Source: an archaeon
Lineage (GTDB): Archaea; Nanobdellota; Nanobdellia; Woesearchaeales; UBA9642
NCBI GenBank assembly: GCA_043806035.1
Contig: JAZDHK010000001.1
Coordinates: forward strand, 32,001 to 96,000
Length of the DNA stretch: 64,000 nt
Direction: 5' to 3'
Below, piece by piece: positions 34,439-41,175 of the stretch. The notes beneath the pieces are model-generated. The model was given only the letters and a program-made list of their open reading frames with translations, searched no databases and was not told where the DNA came from. Every line of letters begins with the position of its first letter. Position 1 is the stretch's first letter. Made by a program: the position numbers and the translations under genes.

Positions 34439-34477
34439 TCCCGTAAATTTTTTAAACAACCGTATATGGAAAGTAGT

Positions 34478-34702
34478 ATGCAGCTCATCATTGACACTAC
34501 AAAGGATAGCCCGGAGCAATTGAGAAAGGCCATAGCCTTCCTGCAAGAACTTGTTGGAGAACAGCCTGCCATTGAACCAGTTCCTTTGCTCAAGGAACTC
34601 GCGCAGCAGGTCAAGCAGGAATTGCCAAAAACGAAGAATGGAAAGAAAGCGCCCGACGATGAAGACGAGGATGTCGAGTTCAAAATTGTTGAGTACACGT
34701 GA
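34478..34702 (+). CDS. Small hypothetical protein
   Basis: MQLIIDTTKDSPEQLRKAIAFL...KIVEY; TTTTTAAA upstream. Confidence 0.65.
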   Translation: MQLIIDTTKDSPEQLRKAIAFLQELVGEQPAIEPVPLLKELAQQVKQELPKTKNGKKAPDDEDEDVEFKIVEYT

Positions 34703-35819
34703 TGTATCTTCCCAATCGTTCCTCAATCTCCTGCAAGATCTCTCCAGGAAAGGCATAGCCCGCTATGCACATGCGTAACGTGTGTTCCTGATCAAGAAAG
34801 TGAGGAATTCCCAGAGGAAGAATGCCTTTTTTCTCATACGGATCATACCAAAATGTGTGCAGGGCGCGATCTAGTTTCTGAAATGAGAGCGGTTCGTTAG
34901 ATGTCATGTGCATTTGCCAGATGGGCAAGTTCTTGTTCAGCCCATACAGGTGAGGATATATGGAAATGGGGTGCCGAGCATTTATCTCGCAAAAGTACAA
35001 CTTGTCAGCATCAATAAACTCAATATCTATGGGCCCTCTATAGCCGTCTGCATGTATTTGCTGTGCAATCAGCATACCTTGCCTGTAGAGTGCGTCCTGC
35101 CTGCTTGCAGTGGGGAATTTGCTTGAGCGATATGCGAGTTTGTCACACAGCCGGTCCTGCATGTAGACGAGTGCTATTTCGTCCTCCTCAAGAAAGAAGC
35201 AAATGGCGGGCAAGTTTTTTGGTGGCACGTATTCCTCAATAACGAATTCGGTCGAACGAGTGATGTCATCGGGCAACAACGCATACGTCCCGAGGTACCG
35301 TGCTAATTCTTGCGGTGACGTTACTACTGCAGAACCGAGTCCTCCGCGCGAATATTCTGCCTTCACCACTATTGGTTTTTGTATTGCTATTTTTTGTAGG
35401 TCTTCCTTAGTGACGACTGCCAATCTGGGATTTGCCATGTCAGGAAATGTCGTCATAATAAGTCGTGCCATTTTGGCCTTGCTCTTCGTCCTGTTCGTGC
35501 TGGCAATGAGTGCCTGCTTGTCATTGCTGCCGAAAAGGTCTGCATTGAAGGTCTTCTCGACCCAAAGCAACTCATCAAGCGTATTTGGAGCAGCATACAT
35601 GCTGAGCACTCGTCGCTCTTTCGCAGGCTCGTATTTGTACACCAGTCGTGCGTTCATGAGCCCGCTGTCTCTCCAGAATTCCAGGAAAGAGTCGTACACG
35701 CGAGAAGGAATGCTACGCTCAAAACCGTGCTGTCCTAGAACAGCATATTGGTCGATGACTATGCTGTCCGCAATCATCAGGCAATCGAGGGAAGGATGCG
35801 TGTAGTAGACGGTGGTCAT
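34680..35819 (-). CDS. ATP-grasp enzyme (putative RiPP tailoring ligase)
   Basis: PIVVKAEYSRGGLGS, FVIEEYV, GYRGPIDIEF...YFCEINAR; ATGA-coupled to the upstream gene. Confidence 0.82.
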   Translation of the reverse strand: MTTVYYTHPSLDCLMIADSIVIDQYAVLGQHGFERSIPSRVYDSFLEFWRDSGLMNARLVYKYEPAKERRVLSMYAAPNTLDELLWVEKTFNADLFGSNDKQALIASTNRTKSKAKMARLIMTTFPDMANPRLAVVTKEDLQKIAIQKPIVVKAEYSRGGLGSAVVTSPQELARYLGTYALLPDDITRSTEFVIEEYVPPKNLPAICFFLEEDEIALVYMQDRLCDKLAYRSSKFPTASRQDALYRQGMLIAQQIHADGYRGPIDIEFIDADKLYFCEINARHPISIYPHLYGLNKNLPIWQMHMTSNEPLSFQKLDRALHTFWYDPYEKKGILPLGIPHFLDQEHTLRMCIAGYAFPGEILQEIEERLGRYITCTQQF

Positions 35820-36910
35820 GCCAACTCCTCCAGCCGTGCAGTATACGCACCCTTCTTTTCTAACGAGCGAATTGCCATAATCTCAAAGAGCTGATTCCGC
35901 ACATCCCTATTTTCTTCATTGTATTCCATTGCGAGCGTGATGAAATCCAACGTATCTCTCACGAAACGTTTTCTTGCAATCGGTACGTGTACAATAATCT
36001 TCTGCTGCTCCTTCCAACAATGTATACGATTGAGTCGTTGTCGAAAGAAAATGTCGTCCAGTGCATTGTCTACTTCCTCAGGAGCGCTGAGTCCATGACA
36101 GAGACGCTCATACAATGCTCGCATGCCTTCTTCAGTTTCCAGTGGACATGGAAGCAAACCCTCTCGTGCGAGATAACCGACGCTGTTGATGAGTTGACAG
36201 ATGTCAAACGTACTGGCGTCTCTCTTGCGTAACAGATTCTTTCGTACGACGTTCAGTACTGCTTGTTCAATACGCACATAATAGTTTCTTCCCGAGAGTT
36301 GCGTGAAGAGCGCACACACGGATTCGGCTTTTTCGGCAGGAGAGCGTGATGCATAGTATGTTGGTGCCACGTTTTCAAGAAATGCGTCTTCAGGCTTCGG
36401 AATAACCATGTCAAGCAACAAACTGGAAAATGGGAGGACATCCATAAGAACGGCATGAAGGGGCAGATGGTCTCTGCGTGCTGCAATGAGTGCGTGGTGT
36501 GCGTTGTGCTTTCTCACTGCATACTTCTCCTTGAGTACGGAAAACCACAACTCATCCTGAAATATGCGCTCTATGACTTCTACAAGATTCCGCTCAGGAT
36601 TGTGGTAATGCAAGAGTATGCCTTCTTCTACTTCTGCAATAGGCCGATCCTCCGGGAAAATACCCAATGCTCTAAATGAATTCTTTATGAGCAATACATT
36701 GTAGTCGCACTCCAATCCCGGTCTGTCTCGCATGCACCAAACGGCAATATTTTCCTCGCCACAGTCTCTGTTTGCGAATGTCGAAGAGGGATCTTTCTTT
36801 GCCTTGTACTCTGCTGCTTGTTTTAACCGTTCGTACGTCGTCAGAGAGACACGGTATGCTGCCAATTGCGTGCGTAGCACATTCTTTTCCGGAAGAGAGA
36901 GGTCTATCAT
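35816..36910 (-). CDS. Unknown protein in RiPP-like operon
   Basis: 364-aa ORF with ATGA overlaps at both ends; no family recognised. Confidence 0.7.
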   Translation of the reverse strand: MIDLSLPEKNVLRTQLAAYRVSLTTYERLKQAAEYKAKKDPSSTFANRDCGEENIAVWCMRDRPGLECDYNVLLIKNSFRALGIFPEDRPIAEVEEGILLHYHNPERNLVEVIERIFQDELWFSVLKEKYAVRKHNAHHALIAARRDHLPLHAVLMDVLPFSSLLLDMVIPKPEDAFLENVAPTYYASRSPAEKAESVCALFTQLSGRNYYVRIEQAVLNVVRKNLLRKRDASTFDICQLINSVGYLAREGLLPCPLETEEGMRALYERLCHGLSAPEEVDNALDDIFFRQRLNRIHCWKEQQKIIVHVPIARKRFVRDTLDFITLAMEYNEENRDVRNQLFEIMAIRSLEKKGAYTARLEELA

Positions 36911-37545
36911 TTCTTCAGCTCAAAATGAATCATTCGGGTCGCGTCTCGTGCATCATACACTGCATTCGCGTATTCTGCAAGAACCTGTATGTGCAATCCT
37001 TCTTTCCTGAACATTGCAGCCAAAAATGACAAGGTGGTTCCATGTACTGCTCCTGTTTTTACGAGCACATTTCTGTACAGTTCGTGCGCGGGTACGTACT
37101 GCAGTGCGTGTTCTGCATAGATGGTTTCATCCAATGATGCGGAAAATGTTTCTCCAACAACAAGACCGTTTTCCTTGACCACTCTACTCATTTCATGTAC
37201 GGCTTGCTTTATTGTTCTATTCGATGCGAGGCAGTGCAGAAGATAATTCGCGTAAACGATGTCTATGCTGGCATCTCTAAACGGCAATTGCAGCACGTTG
37301 GTTTTGTAAATGTGTGCATGAGGTAGGCGTGATTTTGCCAGAGAGATGCATATACCATCAATGTCTATTCCTAAATAGTGCCCTATACGGATTACCTGAT
37401 TTTCCTGTAAAAAAAGACCGTCATTTCCCATTCCCATACCACAGTCCAGAAAAGTACAATCCGGATGTTCAGTTGCGTAGGAAAACAGGCAAGGATACTT
37501 CTGCACATGTTGTTGTTCCCTGTTGAATTTGTGGTAGTGGGTCAT
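36907..37545 (-). CDS. Class I SAM-dependent methyltransferase
   Basis: FLDCGMGMG, GIDID, LPFRDASIDIV, EMSRVVKENG; SD GAGGTG. Confidence 0.88.
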   Translation of the reverse strand: MTHYHKFNREQQHVQKYPCLFSYATEHPDCTFLDCGMGMGNDGLFLQENQVIRIGHYLGIDIDGICISLAKSRLPHAHIYKTNVLQLPFRDASIDIVYANYLLHCLASNRTIKQAVHEMSRVVKENGLVVGETFSASLDETIYAEHALQYVPAHELYRNVLVKTGAVHGTTLSFLAAMFRKEGLHIQVLAEYANAVYDARDATRMIHFELKK

Positions 37546-37567
37546 TTGTCCTGACCCACCTCTTTTT

Positions 37568-37912
37568 TTATTCTGGCTTGCTGAAATACTCGTCTGCGGA
37601 ACTACTGAGGAAGGGTCGTTCGCAGCACGGACCACCACCGCCACCTCCATGATAGCATGCATTAGCAGCAGTGAAGTATGTGTCGGCTGAACTGTTCAGA
37701 AATGGTCGCTCACAGCATGGTCCGTAGTGGCAGCCGCCTGAATAGCAGTCTCTCGTTAACAAACCATCAGTGGCAATTACCAATTGCCCACCCGGTAGCA
37801 TGCTTATCGGTCTGCCATATCGGTAAATGACGTCAATGGTTCCGCCTTCCAATAGGTAATCGAGTAACGCATTCGGCTTTTCAGGTAAGGGTATTTGGTC
37901 AAGCGATGTCAT
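37568..37912 (-). CDS. Putative RiPP precursor with two Cys-rich core repeats
   Basis: About 55-aa Cys-free leader followed by CYSGGCHYGPCCERPFLNSSADTYFTAANA / CYHGGGGGGPCCERPFLSSSADEYFSKPE. Confidence 0.78.
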   Translation of the reverse strand: MTSLDQIPLPEKPNALLDYLLEGGTIDVIYRYGRPISMLPGGQLVIATDGLLTRDCYSGGCHYGPCCERPFLNSSADTYFTAANACYHGGGGGGPCCERPFLSSSADEYFSKPE

Positions 37913-39234
37913 TCATGCACCTCCACATATCCTTTTTTGTACAGCTTTGTCAGGAATACATTGACGAAGTGTTCACGCAAATTATGCTTTATAATGATGT
38001 CCTGAACGTTACGTTGCTCTTGATTCTTCTCTTTATAAATTATTTGCAAAAGTGTGAATTCAGGCACGTCCAGCTGTACTGCAGTCCCTGGAAGTCCCTG
38101 TGCACGTATTTTGTACTTGCCATCAGGCAGTTCTTCAACATCAAGATCTTGTCTGATGAAGATGTCTCGCGCACTTAATGCCTCAACGTGCGGTCGCTTG
38201 TCAAGAGGATGTTTGAAGGGAATTCTCTTTTGGTAAATGCTGCCTTCAGCATGCATTCTGTCGACAGGGCAGCCGCCGCCGCAGCTCGGATATTCCACAC
38301 ACACCGTACATGCTTTGTCTAGAGGGAGGCTTCCTTTGTAGGTAAATAGCTTAGTGAGTATGTCATCGAAAGAATCGGTGAAGATGCTGCCGAAACTGCC
38401 GTCATTTATCATGGTGCAGAATCGCACGTCTCCGTCTAAGGTAACTACTGTATCGCTCTCTGGCGGCGTGCATCGGCTAGTGATAAAGAAATATTTTTGA
38501 GGATCTTTGATGAGACAGAGCGTATATGGTCGTACAGAGAATACACTCATGCCGTGCCGTTCATGCAATAGGAGCAGCTGGTCCATGACCTCAAGAATCT
38601 CTTTGGGCTGTAGTGCAAAGGCATTCTGCTCGTGTGACGTCGGTGTTATGGGAGAAGCGCCAAAGTTATTTACTCCACACTCTTTGTGCAGGAATTCTCC
38701 CGTCGTGTACACCTGGTTTTTGTTTTGTTGCACTGCTACCATGTTCACTTCTAATTTCAACGGCGATGCGACAATGTGAGGAAGGAGTGCAGTGAGCGCA
38801 GCGTATTCTTGTGCAGTCGCTCCCATGATGCTTGTGAAGGTTACGGGATCTGAAGACGCATAGGATGCAAGAATGGATTCTAACCCGGCATCCGCGAATG
38901 CAGAAATATCTTCTTGCGTGACGTGCTTTAAATTGGTATTGAGTGATGGCTTGAGATTGTTCTTTCTTGCTTCGCGTATGCCGAAGAGGAGCAATTCTTT
39001 TTGTAGTGTGGGCTCTCCTCCAGTATACGTCACTTCTTTAAAACCTATGCTGTGAAATCGTTCTAGAATTTTTCGCAAGTTCTCTTTTTTCGTCTCGAGT
39101 GATGTTAAAAGCATCCATTTCTGATAGGGAGTCAATTCCTTCCGTGGCGCATTGCGCTCAACATTGAAACAATAAATACATGCATTAGAACATTCTGGCG
39201 TAAGTTCTATCTTTGCAAGGTATGGTTTTAGCAT
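37909..39234 (-). CDS. Radical SAM/SPASM maturase with possible C-terminal RRE/wHTH
   Basis: CSNACIYC, YTGGEPTL, SPASM-type RC...DGDVRFC...CTVC...PSCGGGC; C-terminal FLTKLYKKGYV. Confidence 0.92.
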   Translation of the reverse strand: MLKPYLAKIELTPECSNACIYCFNVERNAPRKELTPYQKWMLLTSLETKKENLRKILERFHSIGFKEVTYTGGEPTLQKELLLFGIREARKNNLKPSLNTNLKHVTQEDISAFADAGLESILASYASSDPVTFTSIMGATAQEYAALTALLPHIVASPLKLEVNMVAVQQNKNQVYTTGEFLHKECGVNNFGASPITPTSHEQNAFALQPKEILEVMDQLLLLHERHGMSVFSVRPYTLCLIKDPQKYFFITSRCTPPESDTVVTLDGDVRFCTMINDGSFGSIFTDSFDDILTKLFTYKGSLPLDKACTVCVEYPSCGGGCPVDRMHAEGSIYQKRIPFKHPLDKRPHVEALSARDIFIRQDLDVEELPDGKYKIRAQGLPGTAVQLDVPEFTLLQIIYKEKNQEQRNVQDIIIKHNLREHFVNVFLTKLYKKGYVEVHE

Positions 39235-39337
39235 ACTTTCCACCAACGTCCCCCACCAAAGAGAGAAATACTCTGCATTATATAAACGTTGTGTGTTGTT
39301 TTAAAAGAAGAACAGAACATCCAGTGGAGATGACTCG

Positions 39338-39940
39338 TCAGTGTACGATATTGACATACGTTCCCAAAGGAACCTGCTCGTACAGGTCGATGATGTCCTT
39401 GTTGCTTGCACGTATACACCCGTCGGAGTGCGGCTGTCCCAACGACCATTCAAGATTCGTGCCGTGAATGTAAATGCCTCTTTTTGCCGTTCCTTCGTTC
39501 TGTTCTTCCACACCGCAAATTTGTAGAAGCCTGGTGATGACTACGGGCTTTGCTTTGTTTTTCTCTGTGTAGACAGGAACTGATTCGTCACAGAGCTTGG
39601 CCTTCCTGAGCACGCGTCCTACCGATGCATCATCTCCTGCTTTGGTGCAGATCATGTGAATGCCAGGAGGTGTTTTGTGACTGGCGACGCCATTACCGAT
39701 CCCGTTTCTGCCCGTCGAGACCTGCACTTCTTTGTCGATAATGATGCTGTCCTGTTCTGCATGGACGAGATACAATTTTTGTTCCTTGCCAAGGATGATG
39801 ATTGCAGGATCGCCTTCAGGTATGGAAACTGCTGCATCGATGGTTGTATACGCTGCCTTGATGCGAGCATAGGCTGTTTCTTGTCCTGACAGCTTTCCTG
39901 GATAGAGCATGAGTGCAGCAAGGAGCAGTTCACGAAGCAT
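39338..39940 (-). CDS. L,D-transpeptidase (YkuD) family protein
   Basis: VSTG, KTPPG, RGIYIHGT...GQPHSDGCIR...DIIDLY. Confidence 0.9.
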   Translation of the reverse strand: MLRELLLAALMLYPGKLSGQETAYARIKAAYTTIDAAVSIPEGDPAIIILGKEQKLYLVHAEQDSIIIDKEVQVSTGRNGIGNGVASHKTPPGIHMICTKAGDDASVGRVLRKAKLCDESVPVYTEKNKAKPVVITRLLQICGVEEQNEGTAKRGIYIHGTNLEWSLGQPHSDGCIRASNKDIIDLYEQVPLGTYVNIVH

Positions 39941-40086
39941 GCGTGCATGAACTGCTTTCTCCTTTTAAATTTGTTGCTCTCTCTTTTTTGCTTGTCTGTG
40001 TTTTGTCGGCAATCTCTCATGACTGCTTATAGCAAGGTTTAAATATCACTCTGCGATAACAACAAACAGAGGTGAGGGGGGATGGT

Positions 40087-41175
40087 GTGGAGGATTTGCA
40101 TAGCGCCTACGTGCTCCTGATTAAGGCAAAATCTCCCGAAGACATTTTCGGGACGCTCGCAGAAAAAAACGATCAGGAAAAGAAGGATGCGCTTAAAGAC
40201 CGTTATCGTGATTTAGCCATGCGTGTGCATCCAGACAGGTATGCCAAGGATCCAAAAAGCCTTCACGAAGCGGAAGAGGCAATCAAAGCACTCAACGACC
40301 TGCATGCCTGGGCCGAACAGGCGATCGATGCAGGCACGTACGGAACGAGACAACGACCTCCTTCCCCTAACAATGTCATCGCAACGTTCGAGCATAACGG
40401 CGATCTCTATCGCCTCTTCTCTAACAGCATAGAAGGTGATTTCGGCATCATTTCATTCGGAGAACGCATCCGCAACGGTGACGTTGAAGACATCTGCCTC
40501 AAGACGGCAAAAGAACAAGAAGACAATGATTTGCTGAAAAACGAACAGCGCATCCTCAAAGAAATCCAGCACAAATCACTGCCTCTCTATCTCGATGCCA
40601 TCCTCCTCGAAGATGGAACTCCCGCAACGGTGCTGCGAAAGATAAGCAACAGCTATGACCTCCTGACGGTCAAGGAGCACTTCCCGCAAGGACTGCCCCA
40701 AGAGCATGCCGTGTGGGTGCTTGATAGGTTGCTGAGCGTTCTTGGATACTTGCACATCAACAATACCATCCACGGGGCAATAGAGCCAGGCAACATCATG
40801 ATCACGCCGTACAACCATAATGGTTTGCTTATCGACTACTTGCTTGCCGTCCCTGACGCGCACACAGCTGGTGCAGCCTACAAAGGGCTGAACGAGTACA
40901 GCGCACCAGAACTCACGAAACGAGCACGGCCACATCCCGCAGCAGACATGTACGCTCTGGGAAAAACAATGGTGTTCTTGCTCGGCGGGCAAGACACCGA
41001 CCTGCCAGACCAGGTTAATCCGCACATTCAATCGTTCATCAAAAAATTCCTAGTCAAAGATCCTGCGCGACGAGAAAGTGATGCGTGGCAGGCATGGCAT
41101 GAACTCAAAAATCTCAGGCAAGAGGTTTTCGGAGCGCCAAGCCAATTTTTGACATTAACTATAGGAGGGAGATAA
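40087..41175 (+). CDS. J-domain plus protein-kinase-like fusion
   Basis: YRDLAMRVHPD J-domain; CLK, NEQRIL, HGAIEPGNI, LIDY, YSAPE, ADMYALG. Confidence 0.85.
   Translation: MEDLHSAYVLLIKAKSPEDIFGTLAEKNDQEKKDALKDRYRDLAMRVHPDRYAKDPKSLHEAEEAIKALNDLHAWAEQAIDAGTYGTRQRPPSPNNVIATFEHNGDLYRLFSNSIEGDFGIISFGERIRNGDVEDICLKTAKEQEDNDLLKNEQRILKEIQHKSLPLYLDAILLEDGTPATVLRKISNSYDLLTVKEHFPQGLPQEHAVWVLDRLLSVLGYLHINNTIHGAIEPGNIMITPYNHNGLLIDYLLAVPDAHTAGAAYKGLNEYSAPELTKRARPHPAADMYALGKTMVFLLGGQDTDLPDQVNPHIQSFIKKFLVKDPARRESDAWQAWHELKNLRQEVFGAPSQFLTLTIGGR

Follow-up and report, generated by a model that had tools for sequence, protein, structure and literature searches.

The described systems closest to the locus reported here fall into two groups. 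The first comprises SPASM-domain radical SAM enzymes that form thioethers in peptides (PapB, the SCIFF maturase, AlbA/StsB and CrpC), of which the archaeal CrpC is described as installing ranthionine links on CrpA, a cysteine-rich, repeat-bearing protein with a leader-like N terminus (PMC13692751). The second comprises the "grasp-with-spasm" loci of Bacteroidetes and the branch 1 and branch 2 graspetide-like loci of candidate phyla radiation (CPR) bacteria; in the account of Makarova et al. (2022, PMC8939145), CPR loci combine an ATP-grasp enzyme, a SPASM radical SAM enzyme, a UbiE-like methyltransferase and zincin peptidases, and the graspetide-like ones also encode a companion protein whose function is not known, along with rapidly evolving precursors in which cysteines are conserved. 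Radical SAM-type clusters for ribosomally synthesized and posttranslationally modified peptides (RiPPs) have been counted in DPANN archaea by genome mining, and identified archaeal RiPP products are described as scarce (PMC12144867). Here we report a five-gene block from a 64,000-nucleotide stretch of an archaeal genome (contig JAZDHK010000001.1 of assembly GCA_043806035.1; this whole stretch is called the window below). We read the block, with a probability of roughly 55%, as one operon for a ribosomally made, posttranslationally modified, cysteine-rich peptide, its five genes acting jointly. It shares with CrpC and CrpA an archaeal host and a cysteine-rich, repeat-bearing substrate, and with the grasp-with-spasm and CPR loci a similar parts list and a setting in small-genome symbionts, although those loci are bacterial and the window is archaeal.

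The block spans 34680-39234, and its five genes all lie on the minus strand:

37909-39234, minus strand: radical SAM/SPASM enzyme, 441 amino acids from its ATG (a TTG at 39246 is likewise open)
37568-37912, minus strand: peptide open reading frame (ORF), 114 amino acids
36907-37545, minus strand: class I methyltransferase, 212 amino acids from the ATG at 37545
35816-36910, minus strand: "orphan" protein, 364 amino acids
34680-35819, minus strand: ATP-grasp enzyme, 379 amino acids

The radical SAM enzyme and the 114-residue ORF carry most of the argument. For the enzyme, the assignment made in the initial annotation from a CxxxCxxC motif and a SPASM-type cysteine pattern is confirmed by matches above cut-off to Radical_SAM PF04055 (51.2 bits, cut-off 29.5), SPASM PF13186 (22.5 bits, cut-off 21.5) and the SPASM model TIGR04085 (32.2 bits, cut-off 27). 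The CxxxCxxC cysteines (C15, C19 and C22) are invariant among nine relatives, as are seven more (C240, C255, C273, C309, C312, C318 and C322), and the enzyme shares with the thioether maturases both the radical SAM core and a seven-cysteine SPASM domain. Its best curated NCBIfam match reaches only 52 bits, and among PDB sequences it finds generic matches only (MoaA, E value 0.007).

The ORF that follows can be divided into three parts:

37751-37912, minus strand: putative leader, residues 1-54; GG occurs at residues 23-24 and again at 41-42, and a hydrophobic stretch, QLVIAT, precedes the first cysteine
37661-37750, minus strand: core repeat 1, residues 55-84, DCYSGGCHYGPCCERPFLNSSADTYFTAAN, with a D-C-Y-x-x-G-C motif in common with a peptide from a second genome (G282)
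37571-37660, minus strand: core repeat 2, residues 85-114, ACYHGGGGGGPCCERPFLSSSADEYFSKPE, followed by the stop codon at 37568-37570

Indeed, the multi-core cysteine precursor proposed at the outset is borne out by the final 60 residues, which are two repeats of exactly 30 residues running up to the stop codon, with the motif [DA]-C-Y-x-G-G...G-P-C-C-E-R-P-F-L-x-S-S-A-D-x-Y-F. The repeats are identical at 19 of 30 positions, 12 of which differ in codon, and the nucleotide differences at codon positions 1, 2 and 3 number 8, 8 and 22. This pattern fits a translated frame whose motif is under purifying selection, and we judge the frame real because identical repeat residues use different codons. 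The core holds conserved Ser, Asp and Thr/Glu residues. Residues 1-54 would be the leader by likeness to peptides of the wider family described below, in which a hydrophobic N-terminal motif precedes a cysteine-rich tail; the Phh-x-h leader motif, as it is given in PMC8939145, was not evident by eye.

Searches with the 114-residue ORF found only itself at an E value of 0.1 or below among 5.8 billion protein clusters, no match in Pfam or NCBIfam and no paralog within its own genome. Such isolation is what might be expected of a frame open by chance, the enzymes then acting on a non-peptide substrate. We put the probability of that explanation close to nil: the synonymous changes that separate the two repeats are those of a frame that is translated, the ORF start overlaps the radical SAM stop codon in an ATGA, an ORF with the same motif occupies the same position in G282, and a peptide gene adjoins the radical SAM gene family-wide (57 of 79 loci, see below). 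The G282 ORF encodes 73 residues, is cysteine rich, follows the radical SAM gene in the slot held by the window peptide, and has a C-terminal D-C-Y-x-x-G-C...C-x-R that aligns with core repeat 1. A DNA pattern for D-C-Y-x-x-G-C matched once in G282, within this ORF, and twice in the window genome (G000), once in the peptide ORF and once on contig C19 at a site where a stop codon interrupts the motif. The pattern gave no match in two further genomes discussed below (G138 and G248), and a reversed-pattern control likewise gave none. The radical SAM enzyme and the 114-residue ORF are thus very probably enzyme and substrate, that is, a maturase/precursor pair of the RiPP type.

Relatives of the radical SAM enzyme were sought in one genome per species, yielding 122 relatives confirmed by tblastn, from which 80 loci were retained. 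A family hidden Markov model (HMM) built solely from 71 of these family sequences matches the window enzyme at an E value of 8.7e-68 over residues 3-439 (HMM positions 7-435 of 437), the C-terminal domain included. The family occurs in at least 122 places in bacteria, many of them CPR, and in archaea, including some with DPANN names; by record titles, its hosts are gut Clostridia, many Patescibacteria/CPR, some Proteobacteria and Bacteroidota, Methanoregula, Woesearchaeota and Pacearchaeota. Among the 79 loci in which the radical SAM ORF was found again, 57 have, on the same strand and within 250 nt of the radical SAM gene (usually 3-70 nt downstream), an ORF no longer than 100 amino acids with five or more cysteines; the background for the cysteine-rich criterion is 293 of 5862 small ORFs of the same loci, and a few of the 57 are doubtful on inspection (L058 and L107). 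Most of the peptides are 35-75 residues long, and typical ones open with a short hydrophobic motif (FFVNVY, GIVSLL or GFETIL) and continue into a tail rich in Cys, Asp and Asn. A protein with an HExxH motif and a weak match to the MA peptidase clan lies beside the pair in 20 of the 80 loci (22 ORFs; L103, one of these loci, was in the search model).

NCBIfam precursor models matched none of nine family peptides, save one weak FibroRumin match (E value 0.012), and neither the window enzyme nor other family members reached an NCBIfam equivalog cut-off; the family is thus uncurated, being covered by no NCBIfam model. Some loci that lack a cysteine-rich ORF (L059, L060 and L097, for example) carry another short motif peptide of an S-C-R-G-W type. 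Together with L065 these three form one clade, with small ORFs upstream of the radical SAM gene that have one or two S-C-R-G-W motifs, and the enzyme family may thus have a second kind of substrate. Phyla are mixed in the radical SAM tree: Saccharibacteria enzymes fall within a clade from gut Clostridia, and the Methanoregula enzyme is paired with one from Rhodospirillaceae, which suggests frequent transfer of the radical SAM/peptide pair.

The closest database relatives of the window enzyme (P0011-P0018, 23 to 29% identity) resemble it over its full length, the C-terminal extension of about 100 residues (roughly 335-441) included. The initial annotation had called this region winged-helix-like, and that view is modestly supported: a profile of 34 C termini retrieved winged-helix proteins (Lrs14-like, E value 4.8e-4; ESCRT-III winged helix, 8.5e-4; AdcR, 3.4e-3), but the match to MarR (E value 0.0023) is below cut-off. 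The leader probably docks on this putative winged helix, which would serve as a RiPP recognition element (RRE); by the description in PMC13692751, the corresponding putative recognition domain of CrpC is N terminal rather than C terminal. One relative (P0017) has no C-terminal domain and is instead extended at its N terminus, where PqqD matches faintly (E value 0.089), an arrangement that would look like a relocated recognition element. Prediction of the complex of the enzyme (9-row alignment) with the peptide (2 rows), run without controls, scored 0.19, 0.37 and 0.11, the mark being 0.32.

The second half of the block pairs the orphan with the ATP-grasp enzyme. The latter matches CPSase_L_D2 at 23.5 bits (cut-off 19.8), and its AlphaFold2 model has a pLDDT of 63.9. 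The top Foldseek entries for this model are 8ynd/8ynq, titled "ATP-grasp peptide ligase from Streptomyces" (E value 1.8e-13), followed by 3wvq/3wvr and 7r8q and then by PurT, PurK and biotin carboxylases. We take 3wvq to be PGM1 and 7r8q to be LdmS, which the entry titles do not say. The ESM Atlas likewise places the protein among LdmS_N and PreATP-grasp/PGM1_C clusters (TM 0.84-0.85), some of them from CPR phyla. PGM1 and LdmS are thus its best neighbors both by structure and by language model, at an identity of just 16 to 18% over the structural alignment and with a modest model. A search of PDB sequences gave generic matches only (biotin carboxylases at E values of 0.0035 or above). The enzyme's five NCBIfam matches at E values of 0.01 or below include no graspetide or grasp-with-spasm model, a difference from the grasp-with-spasm and CPR loci, and its listed structural matches include neither rifampin phosphotransferase (RPH) nor phosphoenolpyruvate (PEP) synthase. 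It looks most like carboxylate-amine ligases of the PGM1/LdmS type, acting on peptides or amino acids, and not like graspetide cyclases, so that the graspetide-type activity first suggested for it is not supported by these comparisons. To our knowledge, PGM1 has no partner resembling a rifampin-binding domain. The PGM1 reaction, as summarized in PMC8939145, couples a ribosomal peptide with an amino acid or other acid through ATP-dependent amide formation.

The orphan matches nothing in Pfam or NCBIfam and is rare. Only six proteins, itself included, were found at an E value of 0.001 or below among 1.84 billion representatives; it is absent from 60 close relatives, and its profile found it in 6 of 401 genomes of a phylum sample and 9 of 401 of an order sample, G000 being counted in both. 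A 3-row alignment searched against metagenome and genome contigs gave no related loci. The AlphaFold2 model, made with a 10-sequence alignment, is mostly helical and confident (pLDDT 84.2, pTM 0.80), and the Foldseek comparison that the initial annotation had recommended returned RPH first (5hv2, probability 0.97, E value 0.066). VIA-align agreed, placing 5hv1_A at the top with 292 residues aligned (Z 10.8, rmsd 5.3, chain residues 311-712), a match that is moderate for a helical protein, since a Z below about 13 may reflect a common arrangement; the next entry has a Z of 7.3 over about 97 residues. The aligned part of the chain, RPH-Lm residues 311-712, lies for the most part within the rifampin-binding domain, given as residues 327-754 in PMC4844700. 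As a fold-level lead, then, the orphan would fold like the rifampin-binding domain of RPH, and this lead is strengthened because two methods agree and because of the alignment coverage. The orphan profile had one weak match among PDB sequences (E value 0.18), and the model had none among viral structures at E values of 0.001 or below. Conserved residues of the orphan family are Gly, Asp, Glu, Asn and Arg, with no conserved His.

An ATP-grasp enzyme and a substrate-domain protein on separate polypeptides have a precedent in the two-component dikinase HpeHI, although the ATP-grasp enzyme of HpeHI is described as PEP synthase type (PMC12167813) and that of the window is not of that type. We also considered the orphan and the ATP-grasp enzyme as a split RPH and rejected this: the ATP-grasp type differs, the orphan family has no conserved His, and the window proteins have no swivel phosphohistidine domain such as RPH and HpeHI dikinases possess. 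The gene order in the window is also the reverse of the RPH domain order. We propose instead that the orphan is the substrate-holding partner of the ATP-grasp enzyme. The fuller version of this idea, that the orphan is a new peptide-holding subunit which pairs with ATP-using enzymes (the ATP-grasp enzyme here, a kinase-like protein in relatives of about 300 residues) and forms with the ATP-grasp enzyme a two-component enzyme ligating or phosphorylating the radical SAM-cross-linked peptide, is tentative and on balance doubtful.

The orphan adjoins an ATP-grasp gene in four loci (the window, G138, G282 and G248), and the single database relative of the ATP-grasp enzyme (P0009) and an orphan relative (P0005) are probably encoded on one 66,479-bp contig. 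The orphan, presented at first as a free-standing novelty, is therefore better described as a helical protein resembling the rifampin-binding domain and co-inherited with the ATP-grasp enzyme. In the window, G138 and G282 the pair occurs together with the radical SAM enzyme, in differing gene orders. A quick maximum-likelihood tree of 75 radical SAM enzymes puts those of the three hybrid loci in one clade (SH-aLRT 99), beside a Pacearchaeota enzyme (91) and on long branches. The G282 and G138 clusters both encode an HExxH protein that weakly matches the MA clan. The ATP-grasp gene of G138 (L013 9953-11178) seems frameshifted, its alignment stopping early, and a 93-residue ORF that follows and overlaps it was considered as a precursor but set aside, as it resembles the frameshifted C terminus of that enzyme.

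More distant orphan relatives have other neighbors:

G261, G194 and G060: an orphan relative of about 300 residues beside a DUF6206 kinase-like protein
G596, G529 and G045: an orphan relative of about 300 residues with a 328-residue radical SAM enzyme and an HD-domain protein
G505: an orphan relative beside an MBL-fold protein

The 300-residue subfamily has a conserved neighborhood of its own in relatives belonging to the same taxonomic order (L016 9031-11530, L029 9718-11979, L030 8426-10739, L031 4391-6676, L027 776-2394 and L028 8678-10256); the partners are the DUF6206 kinase-like protein (with a D-x-K-P-E-N loop) and/or the MoaA/viperin-like radical SAM enzyme of 328 residues, and the HD-domain protein. 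This setting has the look of phospho- or nucleotide chemistry and not of a pathway to a peptide. The G505 relative (L026 9544-10578, 344 residues) has no ATP-grasp enzyme, kinase or radical SAM enzyme with it and lies next to MBL-fold and NAD-salvage-like genes, whose functions were assigned by eye from their translated sequences.

These kinase-like and HD neighbors bring to mind an antiviral or conflict system making a modified nucleotide-like product, with a viperin- or MoaA-like radical SAM enzyme and an Upx-related orphan. An ESM Atlas feature search did place the orphan near "Upx-like" clusters (scores of 0.96 and 0.95, the family being found on 22% and 37% of their members), and viperin and MoaA models are among the better NCBIfam matches of the window radical SAM enzyme. 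We nevertheless consider such a system very improbable, as those matches cover only the generic N-terminal radical SAM core and fall far below cut-off, while the enzyme carries a complete SPASM domain and falls in a family associated with peptides. The language-model neighbor is not borne out by PADLOC either, in which 0 of 10 orphan-family members matched Upx profiles at an E value of 1 or below, and the orphan as an Upx anti-phage protein was set aside.

The class I methyltransferase, as first annotated, is confirmed by Methyltransf_11 (51.4 bits, cut-off 21.2) and Methyltransf_25 (48.5 bits, cut-off 27), with further matches to Methyltransf_31 and Methyltransf_12; it reached no NCBIfam equivalog cut-off, and no homolog was found in the 80 family loci or in the G138, G282 and G248 loci.

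On the proposed pathway, the 114-residue product (a leader of about 54 residues and two 30-residue cores) would be recognized at its leader by the radical SAM/SPASM enzyme, which would cross-link cysteine residues of both cores. By analogy with SPASM peptide maturases, the cross-links would be thioether bridges of the sactionine or ranthionine type. The methyltransferase, found only in the window locus, would add methyl groups. The ATP-grasp enzyme, with the orphan as its substrate-holding subunit, would activate a carboxylate as an acyl phosphate, be it an Asp or Glu in the conserved SSAD(T/E)YF segment, the C terminus or an external acid, and would then create an amide or ester linkage on the peptide. 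We infer every chemical step, the order of the steps, removal of the leader and the biological role of the product.

Several observations weigh against a single peptide pathway of this kind. Among the best 25 of its 43 NCBIfam matches, the window radical SAM enzyme falls below the cut-off of every curated RiPP and thioether maturase model (PapB, 27.1 bits against 340; SCIFF, 22.2 against 425; StsB, 24.8 against 625; CefB, 22.6 against 600), and no PqqD or RRE model matches its C-terminal domain. The CrpA spacing is described as C-X-X-Q/D (PMC13692751), and the window core spacing differs from it. The core also has neither of two other spacings. These, C-x3-D and N-x-x-C, are those reportedly used by known ranthipeptide enzymes. 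The ATP-grasp model is poor over residues 1 to about 100, and the orphan fold match is moderate, as noted. Around the G138 cluster, which has the three enzymes, no cysteine-rich ORF was seen. The initial annotation had raised the question whether homologous loci carry a similar peptide, and the two other hybrid loci answer it in opposite ways, the related peptide of G282 speaking for the pathway and the finding in G138 partly against it.

A further such point is that a domain search of the window genes found no peptidase and no exporter or transporter in or beside the block, as had been remarked before, although homologous loci do encode the HExxH peptidase. This would be expected if the 114-residue product were a modified cysteine-rich protein retained by the cell, such as a metal-binding or redox protein with cross-links or the subunit of an enzyme, in the manner of CrpA/CrpC or QhpC/QhpD, of which the latter is reportedly a precedent for a modified enzyme subunit. 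The size of the product and its tandem cysteine repeats also resemble CrpA, cross-linked by CrpC, as these are presented in PMC13692751. A retained protein seems to us distinctly unlikely, however, in light of the HExxH peptidase beside the peptide gene in related clusters and of the family peptides, most of which, at 35-75 residues and with a cysteine-rich tail behind a short hydrophobic motif at the N terminus, have a build typical of leader/core precursors.

The remaining points against joint action concern whether the two halves of the block belong together. No such ATP-grasp enzyme and no orphan was found in the 80 radical SAM family loci, even at E values up to 5, and in G248 the orphan and the ATP-grasp gene occur without a radical SAM gene, on a 6.5-kb contig; because of these two findings, the radical SAM/peptide and orphan/ATP-grasp modules can work apart. 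The block might accordingly be two independent modules in one operon, with the radical SAM enzyme and peptide making a cysteine-rich RiPP or modified protein and the orphan and ATP-grasp enzyme, perhaps with the methyltransferase, making or modifying something else, such as an LdmS-like, dipeptide-like small molecule or a phosphorylated metabolite. The amino-acid ligases among the nearest relatives of the ATP-grasp enzyme suit such a division, as does the company of DUF6206 kinase-like, HD phosphohydrolase or 328-residue radical SAM proteins, rather than peptides, kept by the 300-residue orphan relatives. We regard two independent modules as unlikely, if deserving of attention, since the three enzymes recur jointly in three genomes with differing gene orders and with radical SAM enzymes of one clade, stop/start overlaps run through the window block, and the top structural matches of the ATP-grasp enzyme are peptide ligases that use ribosomal peptides, as these are described in PMC8939145. 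We therefore retain the single operon as the preferred reading. Of the hybrid RiPP pathway first put forward, the radical SAM/peptide pair stands, on the 57 of 79 family loci, the codon selection and the G282 peptide, whereas the graspetide-type ATP-grasp enzyme is not supported by the comparisons made and the orphan as a free-standing novelty does not stand.

The layout of the block bears on the same question. As the initial annotation stated, and as the ORF coordinates and junction sequence bear out, the five genes are co-oriented and at three of the four junctions (radical SAM/peptide, methyltransferase/orphan and orphan/ATP-grasp) stop and start codons overlap in an ATGA; the overlaps suggest translational coupling of the genes. 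At the fourth junction, a 22-nt spacer with GAGGTGG separates the peptide TAA from the ATG at 37545. The longest methyltransferase frame runs for 251 amino acids from 37662 and would share 95 nt with the peptide gene; the ATG at 37545, giving 212 amino acids, is therefore preferred as the likely start. GGTGG lies immediately 5' of the radical SAM ATG, and one further element was read directly upstream:

39279-39286, minus strand: TTTATATA, TATA-box-like, about 48 nt upstream of the radical SAM ATG and a candidate promoter element

The block was said to be more AT rich than its flanks, and the direction is right (46.5% GC, the genome mean being 49.1% with a standard deviation of 2.2), but the effect is weak, at the 10th percentile of 1333 windows of equal size. 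The genome is archaeal by its rRNA (SSU_rRNA_archaea, 1386 bits, and a match to LSU_rRNA_archaea) and small, at 1.5 Mb and 93.7% completeness, listed relatives of its order having 0.6-2.7 Mb; the DPANN placement made earlier is consistent with this. A search for sequencing runs turned up DNA runs from a single study and none of RNA.

Flanking genes are the housekeeping genes TatD and RtcA and one for a YkuD transpeptidase. The last, directly upstream of the cluster at 39338-39940 (minus strand), matches the YkuD L,D-transpeptidase domain at 59.8 bits, here in an archaeal genome. The protein encoded at 40072-41175 (plus strand) has both a Ser/Thr protein kinase domain (51.1 bits) and a DnaJ-like N terminus, the latter below cut-off at 24.9 bits; its gene is followed by two co-oriented genes, one without a family match and the other with a pyruvate-kinase barrel-like match. 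At the other end, a 78-residue acidic and lysine-rich ORF without a family match (34466-34702, plus strand) runs toward the ATP-grasp gene and shares 23 nt with its 3' end.

No description of the radical SAM-winged-helix/cysteine-rich-peptide family was found in the literature searched. As far as that literature goes, what is new here is the partner resembling a rifampin-binding domain, the PGM1/LdmS-like ATP-grasp enzyme in this setting and the breadth of the radical SAM family, although the supplements of PMC8939145 may already list such loci or relate the protein that it calls "cluster 23" to the orphan. Compared by description only, the CPR "cluster 23" protein often has a signal peptide and lipobox and has conserved His and Arg (PMC8939145), and the orphan has no such features.

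The locus offers a compact five-gene test case for archaeal RiPPs, and it ties into a large radical SAM/cysteine-rich-peptide family that extends across gut Clostridia, CPR bacteria and DPANN archaea. The sole structural relative of the orphan, the substrate domain of RPH, belongs to an antibiotic-inactivating dikinase. If the orphan does hold the peptide for the ATP-grasp enzyme, it would be a new recognition module for RiPP enzymology, and the two-component reading of the pair, if true, would amount to an undescribed principle of RiPP maturation in symbiotic small-genome archaea. The orphan would then also serve as a handle for mining clusters in episymbiotic microbes, where such peptides may mediate contact with the host or competition.

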